Shown: positions 29,137 through 63,158, numbered from the stretch's first letter. The stretch: DNA of 64,000 bases from Candidatus Harrisonbacteria bacterium (GCA_016192685.1 JACPTS010000001.1:161710-225709); one strand, 5' to 3'. The notes: a model not told the origin generated them from the sequence alone. Program-made: numbers and translations.

Positions 29137-30831
29137 TTATATATCAAAAATGGTGAATTTGTAAACCCTAAACATCGGCAGCCCGTTTTTCCCATAAATA
29201 ATCTTTTCCGGTTGAAGCCCTTTGCTTAATAAATAACTTTCAAATTTTAAGGCGATAGTTTTATCCTTTTTAAAAGGGTTTAAAATCGTATTTTCCGTGC
29301 TTTGCACGAAATAAAATTGGAATTTGCCGTAATCCTGGCCGCTATTTAACGCCTTATAAAAATTTTCTAAATAAAGCGCCGGCGTGCTGTGATAAAAAAA
29401 TCTGCGATAAAATATCCATTCTAAAGTCGGTAAAGCAACATTATCATTATAGACAATCATACGAAGCTCTCTATCGGCGTTTTTAGATTTCCGAAGGGCA
29501 AATTTATAAGTTAGGTCATTTAAATGCGAGTTATCCGATTCCGGAATAACCGCGGATTCTTTTCCGGCGAATTCCTCTTCAAAATAGCGATCTAATTTTG
29601 CCATTCCGTAGTCTGGATATCGGATAAAATTGGTATTAATAGAATGAATAATTTCCCAAGCAAAAAAACCGATCATCAACGCTTTTAGCGCATAACTCCA
29701 TTTCGATTTTTTAAAACTCCATAAAGCAGCCGAAAGAAAACCGACAAAAACAGCGAAGGCCGGGCCGTAAAGAGTTAAAAATCTGTGCGCTGATCCAATT
29801 TTCACCAAAAGTAAAGTAAGGAAAAAAATATACAGCCAGAAAAATAAAATTCCTTTTGAACGATTCTTGGCAAAAACAAAAATAGAATAAACTATTCCGG
29901 CCAAAATCGCCAGCATCGCCGAAATTCCATAATAACCCACGGGGAAAATAGAATTAGTTTTCGCATCCCATCTTTGAACCGCCAAATTTCTCCAAAGATC
30001 GGGGAACGGCGCCTGAGTTTTACCGACAGAACCAGTCCATTCCGGCGTCTCCTGACCAAAAACATAGGCGAACTGAAGGTCAAAATGGCCGGTAGTTTGA
30101 TAAAGATAAAAATTATATACCAAAACCGGGGAAAACATTAATAAAGCTAAAATTAAAGCGGCAAATAAATAGGCCCAATCAGTCCTAATAGTCTTATAAG
30201 TCCAATAAGTTAGATAAACCGGCACGATAAACACGCCGGTATATTTGGTAAGCGCTACCAACCCCAAAGATATTCCCCAAAGCCACCATTTCCGCTTATT
30301 TTCTAAAAATTGAAGAAATAAATGTATATTTAAAAGAATAAAAAACAGCAAAATCGGCTCCAGCATACTAAGGCGAAAAACCCACACCAAAGCCCCATTA
30401 ACCGCGAAAAATAAGGCGGAAAATAAAGCTAAGGCCTCATCTTCAAATAATTTTTTCACAATTAAATAAAGAAGATAAGCGGATAAAACGCCGACAATTA
30501 TCGCCGGCAAACGGGCTACCAAAAGCGAATCGCCGAAAACCCGGAAAAAAAAGTTCATAATCAGAATCCCAAGCGGCGGCAAATCATGAAAAGAAAGTTT
30601 AGACCACCAAGGCAACGGCTGACTTTTATACCATTCCAGAGGTGTAGTCTGAAAACTAGTGCCTAAATAATCTACATAACCAATAGCTCTAAAAGCATCT
30701 ACCGCCTCATCGCCAAATAAATCCTGGCCCCAAACACCCCAAAACCGCAGTAAAAAAGCCAATATCAAAATCCCAAACAAAATTATACGAATTTTCCGCA
30801 TATTCGTATTATTTTCGTATTTCGCAATCAT
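29137..30831 (-). CDS. GT-C protein O-mannosyltransferase-like (PMT/ArnT family, GT39/GT83-like)
   Basis: DE motif in loop 1 (FGDEAVDAFRAIGY); ...SLLVARLPAIIVGVLSAYLLYLIV...LGLVALTKYTGVF; paralog of ORF 31776..33461. Confidence 0.7.
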   Translation of the reverse strand: MIAKYENNTNMRKIRIILFGILILAFLLRFWGVWGQDLFGDEAVDAFRAIGYVDYLGTSFQTTPLEWYKSQPLPWWSKLSFHDLPPLGILIMNFFFRVFGDSLLVARLPAIIVGVLSAYLLYLIVKKLFEDEALALFSALFFAVNGALVWVFRLSMLEPILLFFILLNIHLFLQFLENKRKWWLWGISLGLVALTKYTGVFIVPVYLTYWTYKTIRTDWAYLFAALILALLMFSPVLVYNFYLYQTTGHFDLQFAYVFGQETPEWTGSVGKTQAPFPDLWRNLAVQRWDAKTNSIFPVGYYGISAMLAILAGIVYSIFVFAKNRSKGILFFWLYIFFLTLLLVKIGSAHRFLTLYGPAFAVFVGFLSAALWSFKKSKWSYALKALMIGFFAWEIIHSINTNFIRYPDYGMAKLDRYFEEEFAGKESAVIPESDNSHLNDLTYKFALRKSKNADRELRMIVYNDNVALPTLEWIFYRRFFYHSTPALYLENFYKALNSGQDYGKFQFYFVQSTENTILNPFKKDKTIALKFESYLLSKGLQPEKIIYGKNGLPMFRVYKFTIFDI

Positions 30832-31767
30832 TAAAAGGCAGTAATTTGAGGTCCGACAATCGGGAAAGAATTATTTTTAGTAATCGTAGCTACGCGGTTA
30901 AGGTCATTATAGTCGTAAGCCGAAACATCCAAGACAGATTCAATATCTAACCGAACATATGGTTTTTCCGCTCCGTAACTATAAGTAACAAAATACCCCA
31001 ATACATAATAACTATTTCCGGAGACGATTAGCCCCTTATTTTCTTTAGTTTCATTGGGAATAAGCTTAAATTCAACAACTCCACTTTGAGAAATATCCGC
31101 TTCCGCCAATACCGGACCACTATCCGCGTTAGCTAATAATTTAAATTTCGTAAGATAAAGATTATTAAAAGTGCCTTTATTTTTAAAGCGAATTTGGGTA
31201 ATAGCGATTTTTTCGTCCGCGGAAACTTTAAAAGCGGTTAAAGTTTTTTCTCCGTAACTGCTTAGGGTTATTGATGGATAGGTTGTTTCAATCTTGAGCG
31301 TGCTTTCAAAAGGATTGGGTAAGATTACTGCCGGGGTTGTAGTGGCAACAGCTTCTTCTAAAACTGGTTTAGGCTCTGGCATTGATGCTGGCTCCGGCGC
31401 TTGGGTCGGTGCCGGAGCTGGAGCTGAAACCGCTGCCGGTGCTTGCCCTGAGCTTGCCGAAGGGCCGCCCATTTTCGCCCGAGTTCTCGGACCAAAATAT
31501 CCGGCTGCCGGAGAAACTCCGTTCGCGGCCTGCCATTTGGCAAGAGCTTTCTTGGTTAGAGAACCGAAGGTTTCGGTTTCATTGCCAGGAGAGCCTGCGC
31601 CGCTAAGAGGTAAGGGGGGTGGGAGCTGCTAATTGAGTTTGCAAGTTAGCGATTTGCGCTAACAAGGCTGCAATTTGCTCTTCCAAAGTTGCTCCGTGGA
31701 CGACTGTCAATACGCCAACGCCAGAAAGCGAAACAATTGTAGCCGCTAATAATAATTTCTTTTTCAT
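30831..31767 (-). pseudogene. secreted PG-binding Ser/Thr/Pro-rich surface protein, paralog of the N-terminus of ORF 33555..37193, interrupted by a +1 frameshift in a G6/C6 homopolymer (31614..31619)
   Basis: The ATG at 31767 gives MKKKLLLAATIVSLSGVGVLTVVHGATLEEQIAALLAQIANLQTQLAAPTPLTS*, with the stop at 31603..31605. The downstream frame reopens at 31628 and continues as ...SGAGSPGNETETFGSLTKKALAKWQAANGVSPAAGYFGPRTRAKMGG... to 30831. Deleting one G from the run fuses the two into a continuous 311-aa ORF. Confidence 0.5.
31466..31698. repeat. copy 1 of a duplicated DNA cassette (139 bp plus 75 bp identical segments) encoding the signal-peptide-proximal and PG-binding module shared with the gene at 33555..37193
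   Basis: 31466..31604 is identical to 36778..36916; 31624..31698 is identical to 37019..37093. Confidence 0.85.
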
Positions 31768-31775
31768 TATTTTAA

Positions 31776-33461
31776 TTATAACTTAAATTTATAAACCGTA
31801 AACATTAAAAGATTATCATAGCCATAGATTGTTTTTACAGGGCTTAGGCGCAATTCTTGATTCAAAAATAATTCCAAATCTTCAGCGGCATTAGAATGAA
31901 ATATCGGATTCAAATACGTCTTCCGGCTTGCTTTGGCAAAATAAATATCATAGCCGTCAAATCGGCTAGCGCCGTCTTTTAAAAAATTTTTAAATTGAGT
32001 TACCGTAAAACTTGGGAAGCCGGAATAATACGTGCGCCTGGTAAAAACCCAAAGCCGCGGCGACAAAGCTATATTTTCATCATAAATAATAATGGTTGAT
32101 TTTTCGCTGGCCGGAATCCGCCGGGCGTTCATTTTAAGAAGGCGGTCTAAATGCGGATTGGAAGAAGCCGGAATGGCCAATGACCGTTTCTGGCCCAATT
32201 CAACATCAAAATAATGGTCTAAAGCAGCTATCCCAAAATCCGGAAAGGTCAGAAAAATATCAATCGCAAAAAATAATTCGTAAGCCAAAAAGGTAACCAA
32301 TAAAATCTTAAATAGAACTTCTTTGTGGAATTTAGAATATAAATAATCAAAAAAGTAAGCAATAAGCATAGCCGCGGGCGCGGCATATAAAACGATAAAG
32401 CGGAATGCCGAGCCGATTTTAATAAGCATTAGAGTAATAAAAATAAAATTAAGCAGCCAAAAAATTAAATAATTCTCATTGGTCTTATTAGTCCTATAGG
32501 ACTTATAGGTCCGATAAGCCGCCCAACCGATCCCAGTTAAGGCCGCCAAAAGAAACGGAATAGAATACATCAATGTCAAATTAGAAATAATCTCCGAAAA
32601 GGGGTCTTGAATTTTTCCTAATGACGCCCGCCATTCAGGAGTTGGCTGATTAAATACATACGCAAACTGCAAATCAAAATGGCCAACCGTCTGCCAAAGA
32701 TAAAAATTGTAAATCAAAACTGGACTAAACAATAAAAACGCTAAACCGAAAGCGGAGAACAAATAGGCCCAATCAGTCCTATCAGACCTATTGGTCCAGT
32801 AAGTCTTATAAGTCCAATAAGTTAGATAAACCGGCACCAAGAAAATACTCGTGTATTTTGTTAAAAAAGCAAGGCCGAGCGTCATGCCGAATAGCCACCA
32901 ATCTTTGGAGGTTCGACCTCCATTGGAGGTCGAACCTCCCCAAAGTTTAAAAAAATAATAAATGTTTAAAAGGATGAAAAAAATCTGGACTGATTCAAAT
33001 AAACTGGAACGGGAAATCCAGATATGAATCAAACTGAGAGAAAGCAGCAGAGGCGCGAAAAATTTTGACAATGAATTTATGAAAACTCTCTCTGATAATA
33101 GATAAACCAAATAAATTGATAAAATGCCGGCAATCGCCGACGGCAAACGGGCGACAAAAAGCGAATTTCCAAAAATTTTAAAAAATAGATTCTGGATTAA
33201 AAAAAAGAGCGGAGGATGGTCATGAAAGGAAAGATGCGTCCACCAAGGCAAGACCGCTGCGTCTTTAAACCATTGGATCGGCGCGGTTTGGTCGTCATTT
33301 TGGATATAATCCAGATAGCCGATGGAACGAAATGCGGTAAAGCCCTCGTCGTGGTAAAATTCCGAAGAACCAAGCCCCCAAAATCGCAAAAGCGCGGCTA
33401 AAAAAAGAATCGCGATTAAGACCTGTTTTTCGGTAATTTTATATCCAAAGATAGTAAACAT
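31776..33461 (-). CDS. GT-C protein O-mannosyltransferase-like (PMT/ArnT family)
   Basis: YHDEGFTAFRSIGY DE motif; LFVARLPSAIAGILSIYLVYLL; LGLAFLTKYTSIF; carries a 33-nt perfect GC-rich palindrome insert (32903..32945) that the paralog lacks. Confidence 0.7.
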   Translation of the reverse strand: MFTIFGYKITEKQVLIAILFLAALLRFWGLGSSEFYHDEGFTAFRSIGYLDYIQNDDQTAPIQWFKDAAVLPWWTHLSFHDHPPLFFLIQNLFFKIFGNSLFVARLPSAIAGILSIYLVYLLSERVFINSLSKFFAPLLLSLSLIHIWISRSSLFESVQIFFILLNIYYFFKLWGGSTSNGGRTSKDWWLFGMTLGLAFLTKYTSIFLVPVYLTYWTYKTYWTNRSDRTDWAYLFSAFGLAFLLFSPVLIYNFYLWQTVGHFDLQFAYVFNQPTPEWRASLGKIQDPFSEIISNLTLMYSIPFLLAALTGIGWAAYRTYKSYRTNKTNENYLIFWLLNFIFITLMLIKIGSAFRFIVLYAAPAAMLIAYFFDYLYSKFHKEVLFKILLVTFLAYELFFAIDIFLTFPDFGIAALDHYFDVELGQKRSLAIPASSNPHLDRLLKMNARRIPASEKSTIIIYDENIALSPRLWVFTRRTYYSGFPSFTVTQFKNFLKDGASRFDGYDIYFAKASRKTYLNPIFHSNAAEDLELFLNQELRLSPVKTIYGYDNLLMFTVYKFKL

Positions 33462-33494: not shown

Positions 33495-33521
33495 AAAACC
33501 CCCCGCAAAGCGGGGGGTTTT
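33495..33521. terminator. rho-independent terminator hairpin (bidirectional), downstream of the giant surface protein gene
   Basis: aaaaccccccgc-aaa-gcggggggtttt. Confidence 0.6.
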
Positions 33522-33554: not shown

Positions 33555-36500
33555 CTATTTAGACAAAGTGGTAGCGGTCATGTTCGTTGCCGGTAATCCA
33601 GTCACGCCATAACCATTGGTCCAGTCCAGATTGTACTGGTACTGAAGATTAGATTCATTGGATGAAGTGGATCGCGGCGACCAAATAAAGTCGTTTTGAC
33701 CGTCACTGTTTATCGTGCTAGCTGAACCAAGAGTACCAGCAGTTACGCCACCACTGCCAACATATTGGCCAGGAGTCAAAGTCGGATAAGCCGAGTCGCC
33801 TTCCAACTGAACGCTAAGGTTTTCAGCAGTTCCAGAAGGAGCGAGTGTGCCAACCGAACCTCTTAATTCAAACCAGCGGGATTCGCCGGAAGGAATCTTC
33901 ATAGTAGTGGTGCCTAAGGCACAACCAGTTTTGTCCGGGAAGATTTCCACAAGCGCGGAGCCTGTTCCAAGATTTCCGCCAGTAGCAGCTGATGCGCCAG
34001 ATGTCCTGCCATTGTAGCAATTCCCAGCGTTAATCAAACCGCCAGCATTGTTCGCTCCGCTAAAATCACCGTCTGGAGAACTATATCCGGAATCAGTGAA
34101 AGCGTAAAGCGAAAACTTAGTGGTAGTAGCATTGGAACTTGCCGCTGTTGACGAAGATACGCTGAAAGAAAGCTTAAACAAGTTAATGTCTCCTTGTTTA
34201 GCAGTTATCTTAAAGCGATAGAGCGGCAAGCCATCCTGCGCTTGAAGGGTCTTGTTCGCAAGAGTGCCAGCTTCAAACGTCGGATAAGCTCTCATAATCC
34301 TAACACCGGTGGAAGAGGCAAGAGCGCTGGTCGGAGTAATTGTCTGACCAGAAGAAAGGCCGGTTCCATAGTTAGAAGTGAGGCCGCCGCCGCCGTCATA
34401 GTCAACTTTCAATAAATCGCCAGATTTAACGAGCGGACCAGAAGCGGAAATTCCAGCAAGAGTTCCTTTGACAGTCAAAACTTTAGAACCGTCTTTTGGA
34501 ACTGTGAAGCCGGTAATGGTCGTAGAAGTAGCATTGTCGTTACTGGAGAAAGTGGCAGTGCCAAGCTTGGTAGCTCCATCCCACAAAGTAACTTCTTGGT
34601 TAACTAAGTCAACCGGAGTGTTAGAAGCGCCATCGCTCAATATCAGAGTCAATTGTTTGATGGAAACATCTTCATTAGTAGCGCTGTACTTCAAACGGGA
34701 CAACGTTACTGTTTCGCCAGGAGAAGCAACTAGATAATTCTCTGTAGCTTCCAAGGTAACCGCGAAACTGCCATTGGTTGTCGCCGACATCAATTGGCCC
34801 ATATTATCGTTTTCCGTTACAGTGGCGCTCTGTCCGGATACCAAACCAGTTGGCGACGGAGAAGAATCGCTATCATAACCCCAACGATAAGAACCAGTGG
34901 CCGCGGATTTCAAATCGCACTTCAAAGACAATTGCTTGGTAGCTCCCTTGGTAAGGGTCAAGCCAGTGCCGTCAAAAGTAAACGAAGTGGAAGAACCGCG
35001 AGCCGAAGGATTGACCACGTTACCGCCAGTGGTAAGCAAGGTCGCGCCATCATAAAGTTTGCAGTTAGTTAAATCAGTCGCGCTGCCGCTCGGAATATTA
35101 TATTCCAATGGAAGCGAAGTTAACCGCAAATCTTCACCGGATGCCGCCGTATCCAAGATATACTTGGCAAACTCAAACTGCTGAACGCCAGCAATAACAG
35201 TCTGCGCGATTGGCACAGACGAAACACTGACAGTCATTGCCGGACCTTTGGCAGTCATAGTCTGGCCCGAAACTTTAGAAGTCGGGCTAGGAGTAACTGT
35301 AACGCCAGTAGCTTGGCCAGTTACCGTACCCCAGTCACTGGAAGGAGTAGTAGAAGCCACAATCGTGTCGTTATTTTCAAACGCAGTTGTGCCAGCTGCT
35401 AATTTACCAACCATTTTAAGTTTGGTAACGCCAACCGGGAAGGTAATCGTATCAGTGAAAGTCAAGTTGGCTGTTCCAGCAGTATCCAAAGCTGTTGAGC
35501 TCGGATCAACCGGACCGGCAAGAGTCTTGCCAGTAGCCGCATCAATAAGCTTTACATTATCTAAGTCATCTAGACCAAGACCGGTAGTACCGGAGCTTTG
35601 CGTAAGCGTAATGTGCATTTTTATACTGCCAACAGAAATCTGTTCACCTTTAACATCAACTGACCATCCGCCTAACGGCTGATCAGCCAAGTTAATGGCG
35701 ATATTTTGAGCCGCCACGGTGTTATCCGCGCTAACGGTCATAGTTCCGGTAGAAACCAAGACCTGAGCCGCGTCATACCATGGGTCTTCTGTGTTGCTGA
35801 AAGCGGCCGTATCATCGGTCGGATCAGTTGACCCGGTTTGCGGAGGAATAATGCCATAGCCATAGGTTTCGCCTACGACAAAGAGATCAGTCCTTTTCGC
35901 AAGATCAAAGTCAATTGTCCTGGATGATCCGCTGACAACGTCACCTTTGAGATTGACTTCTTTATTAAAGCCCTTGTCAATCAAGATACCGCTGCCTGGG
36001 AAAACTGATGAATAATACTTCCCATCAGAACTTATAGTAGTGTCGTAGGAAGTACCATCAACAACGGTTTTCACATTGCCCAAATCCGAAGATCCGGCAG
36101 AACCGGTTTGATTCCAACGGATAGACTTCAAATAGACTTTTTCGGCAGAGCCGGCAGTAACTTTAACCGAAGAAAAGGTGTAACTCGTGGTACCAATTTC
36201 TTTGGTTTGGCTAGCGCCTGGATCTAACGGGCCACGAGCCATAGTAACGCTACCAATTGTTAAGGTTTCGTTAATGGTATGAGTGGTTCCAGTAAGAGGC
36301 AAAGCGCCATTTACGGCTGCTGAGGTATTAACCGCAGTTACCCGCAAAGCCAAAGTCTGGCCTCCATAAGAGCCGCCGACAGCTGCGCGATTTGCCGCAA
36401 CCGTTACAACTTTAGTGGTACCGGCTGCTACTTTCATTGACTCGCCAACTGTGGCTTTATGCTCGGAACTTAAAGTCTTTTTAAGGCCAAGCTGGTTGCC

Positions 36501-37193
36501 AGCATCATCTAATAAGAGAACGCTGTCCAAAGCCGCGTCAGCAGCTAAACCAGTTCTTTCTACTGTTAATCCGGTAACAGTTACATCGCCGTCAGCAGAA
36601 GCAGTCAAGTAAACCTTAGTAAAAGGAATTCTTGCCGCATCGCCAGGAGCGAGAGTCGCTGTTGGCTGGTCTGGAGCTAACGTTACCGTTAATCCAGTGC
36701 CTTGCGGTGTTACTACCACCACTGGAGCTGGCGTTGTACCGCCAGTTGTTGGAGCTGGTGCTGGAGCCGCTGCCGCGCCGCCCATTTTCGCCCGAGTTCT
36801 CGGACCAAAATATCCGGCTGCCGGAGAAACTCCGTTCGCGGCCTGCCATTTGGCAAGAGCTTTCTTGGTTAGAGAACCGAAGGTTTCGGTTTCATTGCCA
36901 GGAGAGCCTGCGCCGCTATATTGCTGTAAGGCCTTGACTGCCGCTCCTTTGCTGCCGAGGGTGAGGTCCCCAGAAGAGGTAAGGGTAGCGGAAGCAGTGC
37001 CTGTTCCAGCTGATTCTTGAGCTGCTAATTGAGTTTGCAAGTTAGCGATTTGCGCTAACAAGGCTGCAATTTGCTCTTCCAAAGTTGCTCCGTGAGCAGC
37101 CATTGGAAGCAAAGTTCCTGCTCCGGAAAGGGAAATAACTGTCGCAATTGATACGACAGCTGTAGAAACTTTGTTAATTAATTTATTTTTCAT
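33555..37193 (-). CDS. giant secreted Thr/Ser/Gly/Ala-rich cell-surface protein with N-terminal signal peptide and peptidoglycan-binding-like domain (S-layer-like, candidate O-glycosylation substrate)
   Basis: 1212 aa. Signal peptide MKNKLINKVSTAVVSIATVISLSGAG, then a coiled segment, then a PG_binding_1-like LGSKGAAVKALQQY...ETFGSLTKKALAKWQAANGV...GYFGPRT, then more than 1000 aa of low-complexity T/S/G/A-rich beta-like repeats. Confidence 0.7.
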   Translation of the reverse strand: MKNKLINKVSTAVVSIATVISLSGAGTLLPMAAHGATLEEQIAALLAQIANLQTQLAAQESAGTGTASATLTSSGDLTLGSKGAAVKALQQYSGAGSPGNETETFGSLTKKALAKWQAANGVSPAAGYFGPRTRAKMGGAAAAPAPAPTTGGTTPAPVVVVTPQGTGLTVTLAPDQPTATLAPGDAARIPFTKVYLTASADGDVTVTGLTVERTGLAADAALDSVLLLDDAGNQLGLKKTLSSEHKATVGESMKVAAGTTKVVTVAANRAAVGGSYGGQTLALRVTAVNTSAAVNGALPLTGTTHTINETLTIGSVTMARGPLDPGASQTKEIGTTSYTFSSVKVTAGSAEKVYLKSIRWNQTGSAGSSDLGNVKTVVDGTSYDTTISSDGKYYSSVFPGSGILIDKGFNKEVNLKGDVVSGSSRTIDFDLAKRTDLFVVGETYGYGIIPPQTGSTDPTDDTAAFSNTEDPWYDAAQVLVSTGTMTVSADNTVAAQNIAINLADQPLGGWSVDVKGEQISVGSIKMHITLTQSSGTTGLGLDDLDNVKLIDAATGKTLAGPVDPSSTALDTAGTANLTFTDTITFPVGVTKLKMVGKLAAGTTAFENNDTIVASTTPSSDWGTVTGQATGVTVTPSPTSKVSGQTMTAKGPAMTVSVSSVPIAQTVIAGVQQFEFAKYILDTAASGEDLRLTSLPLEYNIPSGSATDLTNCKLYDGATLLTTGGNVVNPSARGSSTSFTFDGTGLTLTKGATKQLSLKCDLKSAATGSYRWGYDSDSSPSPTGLVSGQSATVTENDNMGQLMSATTNGSFAVTLEATENYLVASPGETVTLSRLKYSATNEDVSIKQLTLILSDGASNTPVDLVNQEVTLWDGATKLGTATFSSNDNATSTTITGFTVPKDGSKVLTVKGTLAGISASGPLVKSGDLLKVDYDGGGGLTSNYGTGLSSGQTITPTSALASSTGVRIMRAYPTFEAGTLANKTLQAQDGLPLYRFKITAKQGDINLFKLSFSVSSSTAASSNATTTKFSLYAFTDSGYSSPDGDFSGANNAGGLINAGNCYNGRTSGASAATGGNLGTGSALVEIFPDKTGCALGTTTMKIPSGESRWFELRGSVGTLAPSGTAENLSVQLEGDSAYPTLTPGQYVGSGGVTAGTLGSASTINSDGQNDFIWSPRSTSSNESNLQYQYNLDWTNGYGVTGLPATNMTATTLSK
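36778..37093. repeat. copy 2 of the duplicated cassette (N-terminus of the giant surface protein gene)
   Basis: see copy 1. Confidence 0.85.
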
Positions 37194-37591
37194 AATCTTT
37201 TTTTGACCTTTCCTCTTGAACTAAATTTATCGACGATTTAACCCAAGAAGAAATTTTTTAGTTATTAATTTGTTAATTTTACGTTTCAAAAATTATCCCT
37301 TTTTACTGTCCCCGCTAAGCGGAGCCGACCCCAGTAAAAGAATAATCTGATATCTAAATGAAAAATCTCGCTTTTGAGCGAGACTGAATTCATTAACTGA
37401 CAACTAACGACCGACGACAAACAACTTTAAAAGTCGTTAGTCGTAAGTTATTAAGTCGTAAGTCAATTTTTCGATCCAGCCTCACTCTGAATCTCTACTT
37501 TTTTAGTATATAACTTTTAGCCTAAAATCTCAAAGCTAAATTGTGTATAATAGGAGACTTTTGGGCTTCAGAATATATAACGATATTGGAG

Positions 37592-38282: not shown

Positions 38283-39050
38283 TTAAATGGTTAATGCCCA
38301 ACTGGAACTCCAAAAAATAAGCCCAGCTAAAATTAAAAAGAAAACCAAGTGCTGGATTAAAAATTCCCGAGAGATGCCGCCGGTAAAATGTTTAAAAAGA
38401 AAATCCGCCAGCGCAAAAGTAAAAAGCAGCATTAAATTAGCCGAACTGATAAAACCGACCGGCAAAAGCGCCGCTGCCCAAAGAAGCTGGGCCACCAGGA
38501 AGGCGGCAACGCCGGCCGCCAAAAGCTCGCGTTTCGGAAAACTAAAAGCGGAAATAAGTTTCAGCCATTCTCGAAAAAGCAAAAAAGAGGCAAAAATTGC
38601 GGCGCCGTATTTCAATAAAAACCACTCGGATTTATCCGACAGGAAAAATTCAATATAAATAGAATAAAAAATCAAAATGGCGGCTAGATAATATAACCTG
38701 CTTCTTTTTATAAAATGATAATTTTTAATTCCCGCCAAAAGATAAAAAATAAAGGCGTATAAAAAAATGCCAGGCCAAAATAAAATAGATTTTTCCAAAA
38801 TCCGCATTCCCAAAATCGCCGCCGGCAATAAAACCAAAAAAGCGTAGCCAGTGGAATAATTTTGAAAAAGCGGCCTGGCGTAAATCGCCGTACTACCCAA
38901 AATAAATAAAAATAACGGGAAAAGACTGAAATCCCAAACCGCTGTCCAGGCCAGCAAAGTGCCGAAAATAATACTTTTAAGAAGTAGCAATAACCGGTTC
39001 TGGTGCGCCTGCCACTGATTTTGTAAGGCTGATTTTAGCTTTTCCGCCAT
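38283..39050 (-). CDS. hypothetical polytopic membrane protein
   Basis: 255 aa with about 8 transmembrane helices; overlaps the 3' end of clpB by 74 nt. Confidence 0.4.
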   Translation of the reverse strand: MAEKLKSALQNQWQAHQNRLLLLLKSIIFGTLLAWTAVWDFSLFPLFLFILGSTAIYARPLFQNYSTGYAFLVLLPAAILGMRILEKSILFWPGIFLYAFIFYLLAGIKNYHFIKRSRLYYLAAILIFYSIYIEFFLSDKSEWFLLKYGAAIFASFLLFREWLKLISAFSFPKRELLAAGVAAFLVAQLLWAAALLPVGFISSANLMLLFTFALADFLFKHFTGGISREFLIQHLVFFLILAGLIFWSSSWALTI

Positions 39051-41703
39051 GTTTTAATTCGCCCTTAATAATCTTATCCGCCATTTTATCTATAATCACT
39101 TTTTGAATCAAACGCCGGAGCGGCCGGGCACCGTATTCCGGGCTATAACCATTTTCTATTAAATAATTTTTTAATGAAGCATCAATAACCAACTTCATTC
39201 CTTTTTCTTCAATCCTCTGCCTTACTTCTGCCAGCTGTTTCTCAACAATCGCTTCAATATCTTTTTTCTTAAGCGGATTAAAAATGATAATTTCGTCAAT
39301 CCGGTTCAAAAATTCCGGCTTAAAACTGTTTTTTAGCTCTTCCTGGATTTTTTCCTTAAAAACCCGACCACGCTCTTCCTGCTCGCCATCGCCGCCGCTA
39401 ATGGCATTAGCGGAAAAACCCAAATTAGCCATTTCTTTTAAGTAATGGCTGCCGACATTGGAAGTCATGATAATAATAGAATTTTTAAAATTCACTATCC
39501 GCCCCTTGCCGTCGGTAAGGCGCCCGTTATCCAAAACCTGAAGCAAAATATTAAAAACTTCCGGATGGGCTTTTTCAATTTCATCAAACAAAATCAAACT
39601 ATACGGGCGGTGCCGGACAATTTCCGTCAGCTGGCCGCCTTCTTCATAACCGACATAGCCGGGCGGCGAGCCAATCATCCGGGAAACCGCGTGCTTCTCC
39701 ATATATTCGGACATATCAATCCGCACCAGCGACTTTTCGTCATTAAACATAAATTCCGCCAGCGCTTTTGCCAGTTCGGTTTTACCGACCCCGGTCGGGC
39801 CGAGAAACATAAATGACCCAAGCGGACGATTTTCATCCGAAAGTCCCGCTCTGGCGCGCCGCAAAGCGCTGGATACCGCGCTGATTCCTTCTTTTTGGCC
39901 GATGACTCTGCCGGATAAAACCTCTTCAATTTTTACTAATTTTTCCCCTTCGGATTCCAGCATTTTCGTTACCGGAATACCGGTCCAGCGGGAAACCACC
40001 AGCGCCACATCTTCTTCATCAACGCTTTCTTTTAAAAACCGCTCAGCCCTATCAGCCCTATCAGACTTATCAGACTTATCAGACTTATTAACCTTATTAG
40101 ACTTATCAGTCCTATTAGACCAACCAGACTTATAATTCCGATTCTCAAAATTCTTGAAGTTTTTCTCGGCCAGCGGCAATTGGCCGTAAAGAATCTGGGC
40201 GACCCTTTCTAAATTGCCTTCCCGCTCGGCCACTTCCGCTTCCCGCTTTAAATCTTCAATTTTCTTCCGCAAATTATGCAAATTTTCAAAAGCGATTTTT
40301 TCCGCGTGCCATTTCGCCGATAAATCGTCATTTTTTTCTTTTAGCTCCGCGATTTCTTTTTCTACTTCTTTAATCCGCTTTTTGCTTTCGGCTCCGGTTT
40401 CTTTCAAAAGCGCTGACCGCTCCACTTCCAGGCGAGTAAGCGCCCGGCGGACTTTATCAATCTCACCGGGCAGGCTTTCCGTTTCTAAACGCCGCGCCGC
40501 GGCCGCTTCGTCCACCAAATCAACCGCTTTATCCGGCAAAAACCGGTCGGCGATGTATCTCGCGGATAAATTCACTGCCGCCAGCAAAGCCTCATCGCTG
40601 ATCCTAAGGCCGTGATGAATTTCATATTTTTCTTTAAGGCCGCGCAAAATCGTCAAACTGTCTTCCAGATTCGGCTCTTCCACTAAAATCGGCTGAAACC
40701 GCCGTTCCAAGGCCGGGTCCTTTTCAATATGCTTTTGAAATTCTTTTAAAGTAGTGGCGCCGATCGCGTGCAGTTCGCCGCGGGCTAAAGCCGGCTTTAA
40801 TAAATTAGAAGCGTCCACCGCGCCCTCTGCCGCTCCGGCGCCTACTATCATATGTATTTCATCAATAAAAAGAATGAGCCGGCCAGCCGCGTTTTGAATT
40901 TCTTTTATAAAAGCTTTTAAGCGGTCTTCAAACTCGCCGCGGAATTTCGTGCCGGCAATCAAAGAACCGATATCCAGCATTATAATTTCTTTATCCTTTA
41001 GGGGCTCGGGAACATCTCCGGAAACAATTCTTTGCGCCAATCCCTCAACAATCGCGGTTTTTCCAACGCCCGGCTCGCCGATTAAAATCGGATTATTTTT
41101 TGTCCGTCGGGAAAGAACTTGGATTACCCGCCTTAGCTCTTCATCGCGGCCGATTACCGGGTCTAATTTTCCATCGCGGGCTTTGTCCGTAAGATTGATG
41201 GCGTATTTATCCAAAACTTGAAATTTGCTTTCCGGCGTCTCATCGGTAACCCGCGTAGAGCCGCGAAGCTGGGCAAGAATCCGAAGCGCCGCCTCTCGTT
41301 TAAAACCGGCCCGCTCCAGTAAAATCTGGGCGGCGGAAGCCGTCTCTAAAATTCCGAGCAGCAAATGCTCACAGGAAATAAATTCGTCTTTTTGGGCCTG
41401 GGCAATTTTGGCGGCTTTATCCAAAACCTGCATCAATTCCTGCGACAAATACAGCTGGCCGACATTGGAAGCGGTAAAAATTTTCGGCAGCTTTTTTAAT
41501 TCTTCTTCAATCTGCTGGTCTAATTTATCCAAATTCACTCCGCTTCGCATTAAAAGCGGCTGGACTAAAGATTGGGTGTCGGGAATAAGCGCCGCCAAAA
41601 GATGGAGCGCCTTGAATTCGCCATGATTTTTTGCAGCAGCCAAGTCCTGCGCATTCTGAAGCGCTTCCTGCGCTTTAATTGTGAAACGATTGAAATTCTT
41701 CAT
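38977..41703 (-). CDS. clpB: ATP-dependent chaperone ClpB, with an in-frame low-complexity (KSD)n-like insert
   Basis: Clp N-terminal domain; two AAA modules ([24 protein letters not shown]); the middle coiled-coil; the ...VSRWTGIPV signature. The insert [34 protein letters not shown] is encoded by 9-nt periodic repeats at 40040..40135. Confidence 0.95.
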
Positions 41704-43181: not shown

Positions 43182-44540
43182 TTATAACACGCGCATTAAA
43201 ACTTTAGTCAATCGGTCAATTTCAGCTTTGGTAGTCGGCCGGCCGAAAGTGAATCGCAGACTGCTCATCGCCCGCTCTTCACTATGCCCCATAGCAGTTA
43301 AAACATGCGACGGCTGGCAGGTACGCGCAGTACAGGCGGATCCCGGAGAAACCGCGAAACCGGCCAAATCTAATTTGATAAGCAATTCTTGCGCCGCACT
43401 GCCTGGAAAATAAAAATTAAGATTATTCGGATTTCTTTTTTCCAAATCTTCCGGACCGTTCAATTTTGCTTTGGGCGCGATTTTTTTCATCCGCGCCAAA
43501 AAATACTCCTGCAATTTCCGCAATCTCTTATTTTCTGAATTTCTTGATTTCTCAACCAATTCCACTGCTTTTCCAAATCCGACAATGGCCGGCACATTTT
43601 CTGTCCCGCCCCGCAAGCCGTATTCTTGTTGGTTACCACCGGTAATAATCGGATGAAGCATAAAACTTGAAGCATGAAACATTTCTTTTTGTTTCAAGTT
43701 ACGTGTTTCATGTTTCATGAAAAGTGCGCCAGCTCCTTTTGGCCCATAAATTTTTTGCGCCGATAGCGTCAGTAAATCCACGCCCAACTCATTAACATCG
43801 CAATTTAAATAATTGAAAGCTTGGACGGCATCGGTGTGCAGCAATGGATATGCCATTGCTGAACTTTTAACATTTAACTTTTGACTTTTAACTTCTCTAA
43901 AATTTCGGATAATCTCCGAAATTTTAGAGATTGGCTGAATAATTCCCACTTCATTATTCACATACATCGCGGAAACTAAAATAGTCCGCTCGTCCAACGC
44001 ATCTTTCAGCTTTTTCAAATCCACTAATCCATTTTTATCTACAGGCAGATAAACCACCTCTACGCCGTCTTTCTCTAAGTCTCGCGCGGTTTCTAAAATA
44101 GAATCGTGCTCAATAGAAGAAACAATTATTTTAGGTAAAAATGGTTCAGCTGTTTTCGTGCGGAAACTACGGAGCTCCGATTTGCTTGGTTCCGCCGAAG
44201 GCGGAAAATCGGAGCGAGGCGTAGCGGGCTCTCGCCGCTGGAGCGAGAGAACCGCGGTTCCGGTAGAAAATTGCTGAACCATTTTCACCGCGCCCCGCAG
44301 CGCCAAGTTATTTGCTTCAGTTGCTGAGCTCGTAAAAATTATTTCCCGATAATTTGCGCCAATAGATTTCGCAACGATATCACGTGCCTGAAAAATCGCT
44401 GCCGAAGCTTCCTGCCCAAACCAATGCAAAGCCCCGGGATTGCCGAATTTTTTAGACCAGTACGGCTCCATCGCCTTTTTCACTCGCGAGTCCAGCGGCG
44501 TCCCAGCCGCGTAATCAAAATAATAACGTTTCAGCCTCAT
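43182..44540 (-). CDS. iscS: cysteine desulfurase (IscS/NifS family, class V aminotransferase), with about 45-aa and about 14-aa in-frame inserts
   Basis: YFDYAAGTP, SSATEANNLA, LLHTDAVQA, SAQKIYGPKGAGALF, class V fold; inserts at 44141..44282 (GC-rich element) and 43650..43720, 43865..43900 (AT-rich repeats). Confidence 0.85.
   Translation of the reverse strand: MRLKRYYFDYAAGTPLDSRVKKAMEPYWSKKFGNPGALHWFGQEASAAIFQARDIVAKSIGANYREIIFTSSATEANNLALRGAVKMVQQFSTGTAVLSLQRREPATPRSDFPPSAEPSKSELRSFRTKTAEPFLPKIIVSSIEHDSILETARDLEKDGVEVVYLPVDKNGLVDLKKLKDALDERTILVSAMYVNNEVGIIQPISKISEIIRNFREVKSQKLNVKSSAMAYPLLHTDAVQAFNYLNCDVNELGVDLLTLSAQKIYGPKGAGALFMKHETRNLKQKEMFHASSFMLHPIITGGNQQEYGLRGGTENVPAIVGFGKAVELVEKSRNSENKRLRKLQEYFLARMKKIAPKAKLNGPEDLEKRNPNNLNFYFPGSAAQELLIKLDLAGFAVSPGSACTARTCQPSHVLTAMGHSEERAMSSLRFTFGRPTTKAEIDRLTKVLMRVL
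44141..44282. repeat. GC-rich multi-hairpin palindromic element, copy A (in frame within iscS)
   Basis: Closing inverted repeat atggttcagc/gctgaaccat; internal hairpins ctccgattt...aaatcggag, ttccgcc-gaa-ggcggaa, ctctcgc-cgctg-gagcgagag; conserved aactacgga, gaggcgtag, cgctggag, ccggt..atagaaa. Confidence 0.8.
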
Positions 44541-46023: not shown

Positions 46024-47421
46024 TTAGACTATAATCAACTTTTTCAGATTTTGCAACTCCTTATTTAAAATATTTTTATCCGTCGATTCTATATTCAAAC
46101 GCAATAAATTTTCTGTATTGGAGGGACGAAGATTGAACCAATAATCTGAAAACTCTATTGTAAGCCCATCTAAACTTAGAATCTGCTTTGCTCCTTGCCG
46201 ATATCTCATTTCAACTGCCCGAAGAACTTTTTCTTTATCCCGAACTTCAAAATTCAGCTCGCCGGAGCGGTAGTATCTCGGCAATTTATCCAACCAACTG
46301 GCCAAATCCCCCTTCAAGGCAGAAACAAAATTTATTACTTCAATCGCCGCTAAAATTCCGGAATCGCAGTAAAAGAATTTTTTAAAGTAGTAATGCCCGG
46401 AATGTTCCAATCCTAAAGAAGCTTTCTTCTCACGCATTAATTTTTTGAAAAAATAATGGCCGACTCGAGAAATAATCGCGCCTTTTACTTTAATGCGTTT
46501 GCTGGATACTACTCCTACCACATAAGGCGATGGAAAAAGTTTTGTTAAAATATAAGCGCTTTCGTTCGGGTCAATCCACCGGCCGCGATTATCTATAAAA
46601 AATACCCTATCTCCGTCCGCGTCAAAAATCACCCCCAGATCGGCCTTTTGTTTTTTTACTTCTTTTTCCAATTGGCCAGTTGCGCCTTTTAAAAGCGGAT
46701 TCGGCCCATGCGCCGGAAAATTCCCGTCCGGATTGTCATTTATAAAAATTGTCGTTAGTTGTTTGTTGTTAGTTGTAAGTTGCCGCAATATGCGGCCGGT
46801 TGTGCCATTGGAACAATCAAAAACCACTTTTAATTTTCGTTTGGGTTTTAAAAATTTTTTAAGAAAATAAGAATACAAGGATATATCGGATTTGCCTGCG
46901 TTTCGTACGGCAACTACGGAGCCGCCAAAAGATTGGTCTCGCCGAAGGCGAGTTTTGGCGGCGAGGCGTAGGCGCGCTCCGCCGCTGGAGCGGAGCGACG
47001 CCGGTGCCGATAGAAATGCAGGCGAAGCCGATACTAATTTCAAAATTTCCTTACCGCTGATTGGCCGCGCATTTTTACCAACTACCTTTAAACCGTTATA
47101 ATTTTTAGGATTGTGAGAAGCGGTTACCATAATCCCGCCATCGGCTTTCAATTTATTAACCAAAAAATAAAGCGTCGGGGTAGTCATAATTCCTACAGAA
47201 ATAACTTTTAACTTGTAACTTTTAACTTTTAACCCGCTAGTAACTGCTTTATATAATGTAGGTGAACTTAACCGGCCATCGCGGCCAACAATTATTTTTG
47301 CCCGCCCGCCAAAATGTTTCCCAACCGCCGCGGCGATTTGAAAAGCTGTTTCCTCATTTAATTCTTCCGGGTATTTCCCCCGGACATCGTAAGCTTTAAA
47401 AATTTTTGGTTCTATCGGCAT
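46024..47421 (-). CDS. pgm: phosphoglucomutase/phosphomannomutase (alpha-D-phosphohexomutase), with an in-frame GC-rich element insert
   Basis: KAYDVRG, IMVTASHNPKNYNGLKV, GVIFDADGDRVFFID, GLEHSGHYYF. The ORF-track start at 47550 is probably too early; MPIEPKIFKAYDVRG at 47421 fits the family. Confidence 0.85.
   Translation of the reverse strand: MPIEPKIFKAYDVRGKYPEELNEETAFQIAAAVGKHFGGRAKIIVGRDGRLSSPTLYKAVTSGLKVKSYKLKVISVGIMTTPTLYFLVNKLKADGGIMVTASHNPKNYNGLKVVGKNARPISGKEILKLVSASPAFLSAPASLRSSGGARLRLAAKTRLRRDQSFGGSVVAVRNAGKSDISLYSYFLKKFLKPKRKLKVVFDCSNGTTGRILRQLTTNNKQLTTIFINDNPDGNFPAHGPNPLLKGATGQLEKEVKKQKADLGVIFDADGDRVFFIDNRGRWIDPNESAYILTKLFPSPYVVGVVSSKRIKVKGAIISRVGHYFFKKLMREKKASLGLEHSGHYYFKKFFYCDSGILAAIEVINFVSALKGDLASWLDKLPRYYRSGELNFEVRDKEKVLRAVEMRYRQGAKQILSLDGLTIEFSDYWFNLRPSNTENLLRLNIESTDKNILNKELQNLKKLIIV
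46894..47012. repeat. GC-rich multi-hairpin palindromic element, copy B (in frame within pgm)
   Basis: Closing inverted repeat gcctgc/gcaggc; hairpins ccgccaaaa...ttttggcgg, ctcgcc-gaa-ggcgag, gctccgc-cgctg-gcggagc. The same conserved single-stranded motifs as copy A, with compensatory changes in the stems. Confidence 0.8.
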
Positions 47422-47472
47422 CGCATTTAAATTATAGCTTAATGATATAATAAAATTGAATTCCGAATTGCC

Positions 47473-49563
47473 ATGACTAAAAAAAATAAGAAAAACAAGC
47501 CTGGCCAAAATTTTCCAGGAAAACTGCGGTCTTTCCGTTCCCAAATCCATCCGGAAACCGAACGGAGCATTTTAGCGGTTTTTTTCATTGCCGCCAGCGC
47601 AGTCTTAATTTTAGCCAGTTTTCATAACGCCGGCCCGGCTGGAGAATTTATTTTTAACTGGCTGACGAAATTCTTCGGGTTTGGCTATTACTTATTTCCT
47701 ACTATTTTTCTGGTTATCGCCGGAGTCTTTCTTTCCGGCGGAAAAGAAGAAAACGACCGGTCGCTGGGAATGACTTTTTTGGGCGGAACGCTTTTTATAA
47801 TTTCCGGACTCGGTTTAATTGATATCCTTTATCCGGCCAAAGGAGGCTGGATCGGAGAATGGATGGGAATGATTGAAATTCCTTTTGGTTATATTGCCGG
47901 CATTATTATCGCCGCCACCATCCTAATCTCCGCCCTGCTTTTAACTATTAATCTGCCGCTAAAATTATGGCGGCCGAAGCCGAAAATTATCATTCAAACT
48001 CCGGAACCAGAAAAACCGGCAGCCGGAGAAACTGCTTTAACTCCCAAGGAAGAAAAAAAGATAGAAGCCCCGACAATAAAAATAGAAAATCCTAAAGCCT
48101 TTTTTACTCCAAAAAAACAAATTAAAGCTTCGGCTGACGCTATTGGAAAAAACTATACTCCCCCGCCGCTTTCGCTTTTAAAATCCACCATTGAGAAACC
48201 GACAGCCGGCGATTTGCGCGCCAACGCCAACATTATTAAAAGAACTCTAGACAGTTTTGGCATTCCGGTGGAAATGGGAGAAATTTCCATCGGCCCGAAA
48301 GTTACCCGATACACCCTAAAGCCAGCCGAAGGAATAAAACTGGCGCGCATCACGGCTTTAAATCAGGACTTAGCCTTGGCGCTCGCCGCCCATCCCATCC
48401 GGATTGAAGCGCCAATCCCAGGAAAATCCCTGGTCGGCATTGAAGTGCCGAATAAATCCGCGGCCATTGTCCGTCTTGGCAGTTTAATGGCTTTTCCGGA
48501 ATTCACCGCTTCCGGCCCGCTGGGATTTATTTTGGGGCGGGATGTCAGCGGCGACCCGATTATGGCGGACATCGGCAAAATGCCGCATCTTTTGATTGCC
48601 GGTTCCACCGGTTCTGGAAAATCAGTCGCCATCCATTCTTTAATTATTTCTCTTTTATATAAAAATTCTCCGGAAACTTTAAAATTGATACTGATTGACC
48701 CGAAGCGGGTAGAACTTACTATCTATAATGAAATTCCCCATCTAATCGCTCCGGTGATTACCGACGGCAAAAAAGCGCTCGGGGTTTTCCGCTGGGCAAT
48801 TGAAGAAATGGAAAAACGGTATGAAAAACTCCAAGCCGCGGGCGCCAGAGACATTAAAAGCTATAACGCTTCCCGACCCAGCGAATCCCTGCCTTATTTA
48901 GCAATCATAGTTGATGAACTGGCGGATTTAATGGCGGCTTATGGCCGCGACGTGGAAAGCGCTATTGTCCGCCTTGCCCAAATGGCTCGCGCCACCGGAA
49001 TCCATCTGGTGCTTTCCACCCAAAGGCCGTCAGTAGAAGTTATCACCGGACTAATTAAAGCAAACATTACTTCCCGCATGGCGCTTCAAGTAGCGAGCCA
49101 AGTGGATTCCCGAACTATTCTGGATATGTCCGGAGCGGAAAAACTGCTGGGCGGCGGCGATATGCTTTTTGTTTCCGCGGAACTTTCTAAGCCCAAAAGA
49201 ATTCAGGGCGCTTACATCAGCGAAGAAGAACTCCACGCGGTTACTGATTTTATTCGCGACAACAATGAAATCTTAAAAAATGAAACCGGTGAAGAACCAG
49301 AAGATCTTAACCCGACGATCGCGGACAAATTTGATTTTGATGAATTCGCCAGCGCCGAAGAAGATGATGAATTATATGACGAGGCAGTAGCCGTTGTCCG
49401 AGAAGCCCAAAAAGCTTCGGCCTCTCTTTTACAGCGCCGACTGGCAGTCGGCTATGCCCGCGCCGCGCGCCTTTTGGACATCATGGAAGAGCGCGGCGTG
49501 GTCGGCCCAGGCGACGGCGCCAAACCGCGGGAAGTATACATTGATAAAACCGATAATTTATAA
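47473..49563 (+). CDS. ftsK: DNA translocase FtsK
   Basis: N-terminal transmembrane helices; GSTGSGKSV Walker A; LILIDPKRVEL; IVDELADLM; RATGIHLVLSTQRPSV; C-terminal gamma winged-helix (LLQRRLAVGYARAARLLDIMEERGVV). Confidence 0.9.
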   Translation: MTKKNKKNKPGQNFPGKLRSFRSQIHPETERSILAVFFIAASAVLILASFHNAGPAGEFIFNWLTKFFGFGYYLFPTIFLVIAGVFLSGGKEENDRSLGMTFLGGTLFIISGLGLIDILYPAKGGWIGEWMGMIEIPFGYIAGIIIAATILISALLLTINLPLKLWRPKPKIIIQTPEPEKPAAGETALTPKEEKKIEAPTIKIENPKAFFTPKKQIKASADAIGKNYTPPPLSLLKSTIEKPTAGDLRANANIIKRTLDSFGIPVEMGEISIGPKVTRYTLKPAEGIKLARITALNQDLALALAAHPIRIEAPIPGKSLVGIEVPNKSAAIVRLGSLMAFPEFTASGPLGFILGRDVSGDPIMADIGKMPHLLIAGSTGSGKSVAIHSLIISLLYKNSPETLKLILIDPKRVELTIYNEIPHLIAPVITDGKKALGVFRWAIEEMEKRYEKLQAAGARDIKSYNASRPSESLPYLAIIVDELADLMAAYGRDVESAIVRLAQMARATGIHLVLSTQRPSVEVITGLIKANITSRMALQVASQVDSRTILDMSGAEKLLGGGDMLFVSAELSKPKRIQGAYISEEELHAVTDFIRDNNEILKNETGEEPEDLNPTIADKFDFDEFASAEEDDELYDEAVAVVREAQKASASLLQRRLAVGYARAARLLDIMEERGVVGPGDGAKPREVYIDKTDNL

Positions 49564-54702: not shown

Positions 54703-54797
54703 CGCTTTGAATTATTTTCAAGCTTTCCTGACCTCAAATTAACACTAAAAAAAGAGCAGGTCAATCAGGGTGCCTAGAGGGAATCACAAATAATTTG

Positions 54798-54869
54798 GGA
54801 GGCATACCGGATTCGAACCGGTGCAAACGCTGCCACAGAGCGTTGTGCTGCCGCTACACCAATGCCTCC
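54798..54869 (-). tRNA. tRNA-His (GTG) with encoded G-1
   Basis: Manual fold: G-1, acceptor GAGGCAT/ATGCCTC, C73, anticodon stem ACGCT/AGCGT with loop CTGTGGC, T-arm ACCGG-TTCGAAT-CCGGT. Confidence 0.8.
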
Positions 54870-54898: not shown

Positions 54899-55384
54899 TT
54901 ATTTATAAAGAATTAACCTTCTTGCATAGCCATGATCAACTTTTAATTTCTTGCCAATCTTCCTATAGGATAAACCCCGCCCTCTTAAAAATTTACAAGC
55001 TTTTATCTTTTTCTGCAAACATAATTTATTTTTAAATTGATTAGATACTATTTTTGCGACTATTGGAATAGTTTTTCGCGCAATACCTTTTTTAACTATT
55101 AAATAAGGGTAAATACTTTTAAGAAAAAATAGAACGTCTTTTTGGCGCGCGATGCAATATACCCAATTTTCTTTCCAATGAGGTTTTCTTTTTTTGGCCT
55201 TACAAATATTGCCCATCCCGGAAAAATCTTGAATTTCTTTTAAAACTCCCTCGTGGGTTTGGGGAATTGCAATACGATAATCATTTTTACCGTTTTTCAC
55301 TATATTTCCTTCCCCGTCTACAAATCCAGCTATATAACCCCAATTGATATTCATAATCCCAAGAATAACATATTCTGGTGACAA
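54899..55384 (-). CDS. free-standing LAGLIDADG homing endonuclease
   Basis: WGYIAGFVDGEGN (LAGLIDADG motif), 161 aa, basic C-terminus. Confidence 0.7.
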   Translation of the reverse strand: MSPEYVILGIMNINWGYIAGFVDGEGNIVKNGKNDYRIAIPQTHEGVLKEIQDFSGMGNICKAKKRKPHWKENWVYCIARQKDVLFFLKSIYPYLIVKKGIARKTIPIVAKIVSNQFKNKLCLQKKIKACKFLRGRGLSYRKIGKKLKVDHGYARRLILYK

Positions 55385-63019: not shown

Positions 63020-63158
63020 AAACCAGCTTGCATGTTTCGTAGAGCAACTACGGAAGCGCCAAAAGATTGGTGTCCTGCGAAGCAGGACTTTTGGCGCTGA
63101 GGCGTAGGCGCGGTCGCCCGCTGGAGGCGACCGACGCCGGTGCTCATAGAAATATACG
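63020..63158. repeat. GC-rich multi-hairpin palindromic element, copy C (intergenic, 3' of rny)
   Basis: Closing inverted repeat aaaccagct/agctggttt; hairpins gcgccaaaa...ttttggcgc, gtcctgc-gaa-gcaggac, ggtcgcc-cgctg-gaggcgacc. Confidence 0.8.

Follow-up and report, generated by a model that had tools for sequence, protein, structure and literature searches.

Evidence for recent gene conversion of a wall-anchor module between two surface-protein genes in a conserved Paceibacteria envelope locus

The window analysed here is a 64-kb stretch of DNA from Candidatus Harrisonbacteria (Paceibacteria, Candidate Phyla Radiation, CPR), an uncultured groundwater-type bacterium, and all coordinates are positions within it. 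On its minus strand lies a block of four genes: a big surface-protein gene, a PMT_2-family glycosyltransferase gene (PMTa), a small gene that shares part of the N-terminal module of the big gene, and a second PMT_2-family gene (PMTb). The block is best explained as a conserved cell-envelope locus, with two secreted proteins predicted from sequence to be tethered to the wall through an N-terminal coiled segment and a PG_binding_1 (peptidoglycan-binding) domain. About 15 contigs of related Paceibacteria show the same gene order (big-PMTa-small-PMTb); these are the ones whose big protein is at least about 55% identical. Taken as a whole, the locus is likely one in which the anchor module has been gene-converted repeatedly, the last event in the window genome being recent, and in which the small gene has been disrupted. 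The features are listed in Table 1.

The first-pass annotation had reported two segments that are identical between the 5' regions of the big and small genes. Both were confirmed by a repeat search and by self-BLASTN of the window, and both proved to be 1–3 nucleotides (nt) longer than reported, at 76 nt (tract 1) and 142 nt (tract 2), with 100% identity and direct orientation. BLAST E-values of 9e-33 and 1e-68, respectively, rule out chance in 64 kb. No third copy of the cassette was detected in the window by self-BLASTN, the next best match being 28 nt at 86%. The identical segments had been taken to encode the signal peptide, the coiled segment and the PG-binding module. They do encode the coiled segment (aa 34–58) and the C-terminal two-thirds of PG_binding_1 (aa 93–139), but not the signal peptide, since identity begins at its last two codons (His-Gly). 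Along the two genes, identity passes from 50/90 (56%) in the signal-peptide region to 76/76 in tract 1, and, after a linker of the small gene's own, from 142/142 in tract 2 to 35/75 (47%) downstream. These are the sharp boundaries of a conversion tract. Conversion appears to have been patchy, since the 17-nt linker between the tracts stayed specific to the small gene.

Table 1. Features of the big-PMTa-small-PMTb locus (positions in the window)
Feature	Coordinates	Strand	Description
Big surface-protein gene	33555..37193	-	1212 aa; Sec-type signal peptide, short coiled segment, PG_binding_1 (aa 84-137), Ala/Pro/Thr linker, ~1050 aa of tandem beta-sandwich (Ig-like) domains
Tract 1, big-gene copy	37019..37094	-	Coiled segment, HGATLEEQIAALLAQIANLQTQLAA; 100% identical to 31623-31698
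Tract 2, big-gene copy	36777..36918	-	C-terminal two-thirds of PG_binding_1, SGAGSPGNETETFGSLTKKALAKWQAANGVSPAAGYFGPRTRAKMGG; 100% identical to 31464-31605
Terminator-like element	33499..33517	.	GC-rich hairpin and T-run on both strands, between big-gene stop and PMTa start; consensus scan only
PMTa	31776..33461	-	561 aa; PMT_2-family GT-C membrane glycosyltransferase, directly downstream of big gene; PF13231 E = 5.5e-23, PF02366 E = 2.4e-11 (Pfam)
Small gene, 5' fragment	31603..31767	-	ATG at 31767; signal peptide and coiled segment, 54 codons, TAG at 31605-31603 (three-frame translation)
Tract 1, small-gene copy	31623..31698	-	100% identical to 37019-37094
Small-gene-specific linker	31606..31622	-	CCACCCCCCTTACCTCT, 17 nt, unconverted; C6 run at 31614-31619; 56-nt deletion junction at 3' end
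Tract 2, small-gene copy	31464..31605	-	+1 frame relative to ATG 31767; 100% identical to 36777-36918
Small gene, 3' remnant open reading frame	30831..31472	-	213 aa from internal Met, without signal peptide; Pro/Ala linker and ~160-aa beta-sandwich domain
PMTb	29137..30831	-	564 aa; second PMT_2-family glycosyltransferase, directly downstream of small gene; PF13231 E = 5.3e-21 (Pfam)

Recent gene conversion between the 5' modules, as the first-pass annotation had proposed, is well supported by these sharp boundaries, by identity at synonymous sites and by within-genome homogenisation in four independently assembled relatives. The relatives (referred to by L and P numbers) came from homologue look-ups, a scan of GTDB species representatives (80 loci) and one metagenome hit, and nucleotide identity of the cassette was calculated from the alignment columns that the two window tracts occupy. 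Within a genome, the big and small copies are 100% identical in the window, 94% in L001, 88% in L014, 83% in L012 and 72% in L004; between the window and L001, either gene shows 83–84%. In all five genomes compared, the best match of the small gene was the big gene of its own genome, so that likeness within genomes exceeded likeness between them. The closest orthologous small gene, that of L084, matches the window tracts at 62/73 and 129/142 positions. Nucleotide and codon alignments also revealed genome-specific substitutions, many of them silent, that are common to both copies of a genome. Such within-genome likeness is what recurrent gene conversion, or a series of independent replacements, leaves behind, and selection at the protein level cannot yield it.

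The short linker of the small gene (AAPTPLTS, AAPPLTS or AATPFTS) is common to the window, L001 and L084. The big-like N-terminus of the small gene therefore predates the split of these three genomes, and the present 100% identity in the window needs a later event. The linker deletion likewise predates the last conversion, since it is also found in the small genes of L001 and L084. Orthologues were considered as a guide to the direction of donation; this was dropped because the cassettes of the relatives are themselves homogenised.

Two N-terminal layouts of the small protein were distinguished across the clade. In the "own" layout, the signal peptide is followed by a distinct PG_binding_1 subtype and then by a coiled coil, whereas in the "big-like" layout a coiled segment comes first and is followed by the PG_binding_1 subtype of the big gene. 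The big-like layout is found in the window, L001, L004, L012, L014, L084/L086, P0125/P0128 and P0122, and the own layout in L002, L005–L008, L010, L011, L015, L021, P0124 and others. The distribution is patchy: identity to the window in the C-terminal domain is 81% for P0122 (big-like) and 77% for P0124 (own), and L015, which is of the own type, was nested among big-like genomes in four of four neighbour-joining trees.

The first-pass annotation had spoken of a small paralogue. Three-frame translation revealed a frame break that this description had missed, and as assembled the gene is not a single open reading frame (ORF). Its start codon lies 8 nt past the stop of the upstream PMTa, and the sequence past the premature TAG, including the 213-aa ORF, is in the +1 frame relative to that start. 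Among the orthologues read, the small gene is intact in 16 of 16 (292–373 aa, all with PG_binding_1), and it is split only in the window. The NCBI annotation at this position holds only a 183-aa "hypothetical protein" (P0121, HYY86_00965), which is better regarded as the surviving 3' part of a disrupted gene for a PG-binding surface protein than as a free-standing hypothetical protein. Because the deletion described below breaks the reading frame, the most likely state of the small gene is that of a young pseudogene, which would have lost its function.

Two gaps, of 56 nt and about 26 nt, had been placed in the linker of the small gene. Both gaps are real, and the smaller one corresponds to a linker of 6 nt in the small gene against 33 nt in the big gene (net gap 27 nt); the 56-nt gap, however, lies outside the linker and within the PG-binding domain. 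Relative to the big gene of the same genome, it removes SGDLTLGSKGAAVKALQQY, which constitutes helix 1 of PG_binding_1, and it is out of frame. In comparison with the small genes of L084 and L086, 86 nt are missing, consisting of 30 nt that are also absent from the window big gene and the 56 nt preceding them. No Pfam match to PG_binding_1 was obtained in the 213-aa ORF as assembled. When one C is removed from the C6 run in the linker, a single 311-aa ORF results, and this frame-repaired protein scores 24.8 bits against PG_binding_1, with the tail of the coiled helix standing in for helix 1.

Beyond the shared module, the two genes had been called unrelated. This is true at the sequence level, where hhalign gave weak motif matches only, but both remainders are predicted to form beta-sandwich structures. 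The AlphaFold2 model of the small remnant is a single beta-sandwich (predicted local distance difference test, pLDDT, of 80 overall and above 90 in the domain), for which Foldseek returned weak cohesin-like matches. We do not claim homology between the small C-terminal domain and the big body; comparison with the big-protein profile in hhalign gave weak repeated motifs with E = 0.003–0.65.

The big protein is indeed rich in Thr and Ser, as had been noted, with a composition of T 13.9%, G 11.5%, A 11.1% and S 10.6%. At 100% identity, it matches an NCBI "peptidoglycan-binding protein" from a Candidatus Harrisonbacteria metagenome-assembled genome (MAG), encoded on a 608-kb contig. More than 1300 homologues were found in Parcubacteria/Paceibacteria, and the best 120 of these are near full-length with 45–72% identity. 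Its sole Pfam domain is PG_binding_1 (PF01471), at 25.0 bits against a cut-off of 23, and the Pfam search found no SLH, CWB2 or other recognised S-layer anchoring domain in the protein. A profile search against the PDB likewise returned PG-binding domains only, including that of 1lbu (E = 1.7e-5). The AlphaFold2 model of residues 139–1212, built from a 65-sequence alignment (pLDDT 87), is all-beta, with sandwich domains arranged in a string. Foldseek matched it to arrays of multiple immunoglobulin-like (Ig) domains (PrgB, mastigoneme, alpha-2-macroglobulin, integrin and the archaeal N. maritimus S-layer), with low global TM-scores throughout.

The big gene of the window carries a deletion of its own, an in-frame loss of 30 nt (10 aa, LNANGAQIAA) at 36919, between Tyr92 and Ser93. 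It is unique among 28 aligned homologues, and all the other 27 have residues in this loop between helix 1 and helix 2 of PG_binding_1, which reads LNANGAQIAA in close relatives. As loop length varies within the family, the deletion is probably tolerated. Its edge is shared with tract 2 and with the 56-nt deletion of the small gene, and both window deletions (30 nt in the big gene, 56/86 nt in the small gene) end at TAT/AGCGGC, the 5' edge of tract 2.

These observations may be ordered as follows. In part of the clade, the N-terminal module of the big gene would have replaced the original N-terminus of the small gene, in which the PG-binding domain came first and the coiled coil after it. Non-reciprocal homologous recombination between the two genes, which lie 5.3 kb apart in direct orientation, would afterwards have re-homogenised the module repeatedly, and the last event in the window genome would be so recent that the 76- and 142-nt tracts are still without any difference. 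The 30-nt deletion may have passed between the genes by conversion, and the additional 56-nt loss may have arisen when a conversion tract ended at this 30-nt heterology. The 56-nt loss is probably a by-product of conversion, since its right edge falls where tract 2 is bounded and where the big gene has its 30-nt deletion. The order given to the deletion and conversion events is inferred and not demonstrated.

Several points weigh against the reading of the locus as a repeatedly converted anchor with a disrupted small gene. Internal branches in the neighbour-joining trees are short, and the number of independent module replacements is uncertain. Deletion of a single C in the C6 run gives an intact 311-aa protein with PG_binding_1, so that a one-base assembly error, or slippage, could mean that the gene is still alive. 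In four other MAGs (L011, L021, L033 and L045), two adjacent ORFs stand in place of the big gene of about 1200 aa, through frameshift errors or real disruptions; frameshifts are therefore not rare in these assemblies, and some may be errors. As to glycosylation, discussed below, we know of no experiment that ties the PMT_2 enzymes of CPR bacteria to protein glycosylation. Finally, the highly expressed PG-binding-domain proteins reported for Paceibacteria need not belong to the big-protein family; one of them is encoded by a 2079-nt gene and so is not evidently a member (Kuroda et al. 2024).

An assembly or consensus artefact, in which the 5' region of the small gene was patched or mis-threaded with reads from the big-gene cassette, would make the identity, the 56-nt gap or the frameshift unreal. 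We consider this unlikely, even though the frame break occurs in only one of 17 small genes, is decided by one base in the C6 run and has a parallel in the frameshifted big genes of other MAGs. Exact look-ups of the window big protein and PMTa returned no record in the indexed assemblies, and the junction of the small gene, searched as a 25-mer, was not found in JGI metagenome contigs, which leaves it without independent confirmation; a 33-mer from tract 2 retrieved in the metagenome scan only an 80%-identical relative, whose small gene is intact. On the other hand, the junction (CCTCT/TAGCGGC) has at most 1 nt of microhomology and contains no repeated k-mer through which a de Bruijn graph could have jumped over 56 nt; the deletion junction must therefore exist in the reads. 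Moreover, the 17-nt linker specific to the small gene and both flanks are collinear with the orthologues, and high within-genome identity of the cassette recurs in the four independently assembled relatives. A related explanation takes the deletion as real and lets the small gene remain functional by way of the C6 run, through slipped-strand phase variation (C6 to C5) or +1 ribosomal slippage on CCC-C, which would yield the 311-aa product with a shortened anchor. The continuous ORF obtained on removal of one C, and the PG_binding_1 score that the product keeps, are in its favour. Nevertheless, six C residues make a short run for efficient slippage, no stimulatory element came to light, and the run is not conserved: L084 and L086 are without it, L001 has C7 in frame, and none of these genes needs a shift. 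We therefore hold functional slippage to be improbable.

The suggestion in the first-pass annotation that cassette exchange drives antigenic or attachment variation was not supported: what is homogenised is a constant anchor present in two copies in the window, no recombinase was found among the neighbouring genes scanned, and one partner is frame-broken. Programmed variation would use the shared 5' cassette as a recombination handle for swapping the bodies of surface proteins, as in S-layer or pilin variation, and we give it little credence. It is true that an identical 5' module stands in two surface-protein genes, that the small protein has exchanged its N-terminal layout on more than one occasion within the clade, and that recombination could occur between the direct repeats (142 and 76 nt, separated by 5.3 kb), deleting the big body and PMTa and fusing the promoter and signal peptide of the big gene to the small body. 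Such a deletion between direct repeats would, however, be irreversible, and the would-be alternative body is the one that is frame-broken in the window. Instead of several cassettes, the window holds two copies only. These are in direct rather than inverted orientation, and each gene has its own start codon and promoter-like site in place of a single expression site or an invertible element. No recombinase or invertase domain was found among about 15 neighbouring genes scanned. Furthermore, the homogenised part is the conserved anchor and not the exposed body, and the big protein is conserved end to end over its best 120 homologues, unlike a diversifying antigen. A protein search with the 115-aa cassette returned short fragments only and did not recover the query's own protein, so that it does not bear on the number of copies in the genome. 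The identity could also be ascribed to purifying selection on the anchor, or to a single recent domain duplication, with no ongoing conversion in either case. Across the family, no part of the module is more conserved than the C-terminal half of the PG-binding domain, which speaks for selection, but orthologous cassettes differ at 9–17% of nucleotides, mostly synonymously, while the copies within the genome do not. The short linker common to the window, L001 and L084 also makes the big-type N-terminus older than their split, so that later homogenisation is needed. This explanation is thus highly improbable.

With gene conversion retained as the preferred reading, the function of the two proteins may be considered. 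For the big protein, the most likely role is that of a major surface or S-layer-like protein, which is probably O-glycosylated. The conserved pairing with PMT_2 enzymes, the linkers rich in Thr, Ser and Pro behind the anchor of each protein throughout the clade, and a downstream block of glycosyltransferase genes that includes a GT2 suggest that both proteins are O-glycosylated by the adjacent PMTs, which would move sugar from a polyprenyl-phosphate donor onto Ser/Thr. S-layer-like envelopes have been described on CPR cells (10.1101/2022.04.20.488981). Together with these descriptions, the multi-Ig fold, with its low-TM match to the N. maritimus S-layer, and the terminator-like hairpin behind the big gene are at most indirect indications of an S-layer role. 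The locus is a conserved and unstudied envelope locus of Paceibacteria and a reasonable candidate for a glycoprotein surface layer on such cells: in one clade, a multi-Ig protein of about 1200 aa is paired with PMT_2 glycosyltransferases and with a second, small wall-tethered protein, and the anchor module of the locus evolves in concert and is sometimes replaced wholesale. As a more speculative extension, to which we assign a low probability, the big and small proteins could be two components of one peptidoglycan-tethered, O-glycosylated layer. Their anchor or oligomerisation modules (coiled segment and PG-binding domain) would then have to match, conversion would be favoured to keep them identical, and anchor architectures would be swapped on short evolutionary time scales. 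If so, the 142- and 76-nt repeats would also permit the one-step replacement of the big protein by a fusion with the small body.

The genes that accompany the two surface-protein genes point to an old arrangement. Both flanking PMT genes match PF02366 (E = 1e-14 to 2e-11) as well as PF13231 above the gathering score, and both encode polytopic membrane proteins. PMTa and PMTb share only 70–77% nucleotide identity even in their best-conserved stretches, and their orthologues form separate clades in a neighbour-joining tree, which indicates that the PMTs are old paralogues and the four-gene order is old. Further downstream lie genes for a TPR protein, four GT4 enzymes, another GT-C, a GT2 (21383–22114, 8 kb downstream), another GT4 and a methyltransferase. 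Short low-complexity insertions rich in K/S/D/R/T/N/Y were observed within otherwise conserved proteins, namely PMTa (TYWTNRSDRTDW and RTYKSYRTNKTNENY), PMTb and a ClpB-like protein (38977..41703; 25 residues). A related segment, TYWTYKT...RTDWAYLF, occurs at the corresponding position of both PMT paralogues and lies under a 75-nt repeat (30175–30249 / 32787–32861) that is 77% identical between them.

Upstream of the big gene lies an AT-rich intergenic region of 400 nt (37194–37591) with a promoter-like site at 37533–37505. A terminator-like hairpin at 37385–37364, about 170 nt ahead of the start codon of the big gene, implies either a long leader of this gene or a terminator of the upstream DeoR-like gene. 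A search against Rfam gave no match at the big-PMTa-small-PMTb locus or in its surroundings.

Two other elements were found elsewhere in the window. A dispersed GC-rich repeat of 116–118 nt is present at 44154–44269, 46901–47016 and 63035–63152 (plus strand as aligned), in copies that are 75–82% identical. It was also located at L084:7348-7464 and L060:4015-4118, and as cut copies at the contig ends L001:1-108, L086:1-77 and L005:7512-7616; a covariance-model search recovered it from related genomes, frequently where a contig ends. The predicted structure consists of two hairpins, with compensatory changes in 22 of 42 pairs among only three copies, and Rfam gave no match to the repeat. Two copies lie inside ORFs, one cysteine-desulfurase-like (43182..44540) and one phosphomannomutase-like (46024..47550), where they introduce no stops, are read in different phases and add about 39 aa. 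The repeat resembles the Rickettsia palindromic elements, which insert in frame into genes. The second element is a group I intron, a full-length match to RF00028 (73 bits) at 56194–56442 on the minus strand. A LAGLIDADG-type ORF (54899..55384, minus strand; GYIAGFVDGEGN) lies about 0.8 kb from it. No rRNA or interrupted tRNA was detected around the intron, the nearest gene being tRNA-His (54797–54868).

Several known systems resemble parts of this locus. Glycosylated S-layer proteins of monoderm bacteria are encoded next to S-layer glycosylation clusters (review PMC4232325). The big protein of the window is similarly a large secreted protein with predicted non-covalent wall attachment through a terminal module, an apparent transcription unit of its own and an adjoining glycosyltransferase cluster, but no SLH or CWB2 domain was found in it by Pfam. 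The closest studied analogue of the gene neighbourhood is found in Streptococcus mutans, where cnm adjoins pgfS (GT-A) and the PMT_2-type pgfM1, which are required for glycosylation of the adhesin, and where a Thr-rich region is predicted to be O-glycosylated (PMC5856776). In both systems a surface-protein gene has PMT_2 neighbours, and in the window a PMT_2 gene follows each surface-protein gene, with the GT2 gene 8 kb downstream. The surface proteins themselves have no sequence relationship, the window anchor is an N-terminal PG_binding_1 domain instead of LPXTG, and glycosylation in the window is inferred.

For the sharing of a 5' module, the sap locus of Campylobacter fetus offers a parallel; its copies, as Tu and colleagues reportedly described in 2003, have a conserved 5' region encoding the anchor and a single invertible promoter. 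About eight sapA copies are present per genome (PMC4943207). Both loci contain surface-protein genes with a common, conserved 5' anchoring region and show recombination between copies. They differ in that the window has two copies in direct orientation without an invertible promoter element, that its anchor is predicted to bind peptidoglycan rather than lipopolysaccharide, and that no evidence of expression switching was found in the window.

Concerted evolution of paralogous bacterial surface-protein genes through intragenomic gene conversion is well established. The window departs from this pattern in that the tract is confined to the wall-anchor module, the two genes being dissimilar elsewhere, in that a differently ordered anchor (PG-binding, then coiled coil) has been replaced in some lineages of its clade, and in that the host is an uncultured CPR bacterium. 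It agrees with the pattern in that copies within a genome are closer than orthologues, tracts span at most a few hundred nt with sharp edges, synonymous sites are homogenised, and the copies share a strand and are separated by a few kb. The mechanism is textbook and already known, and the tracts add an instance of it in an uncharacterised, widespread surface-protein family.

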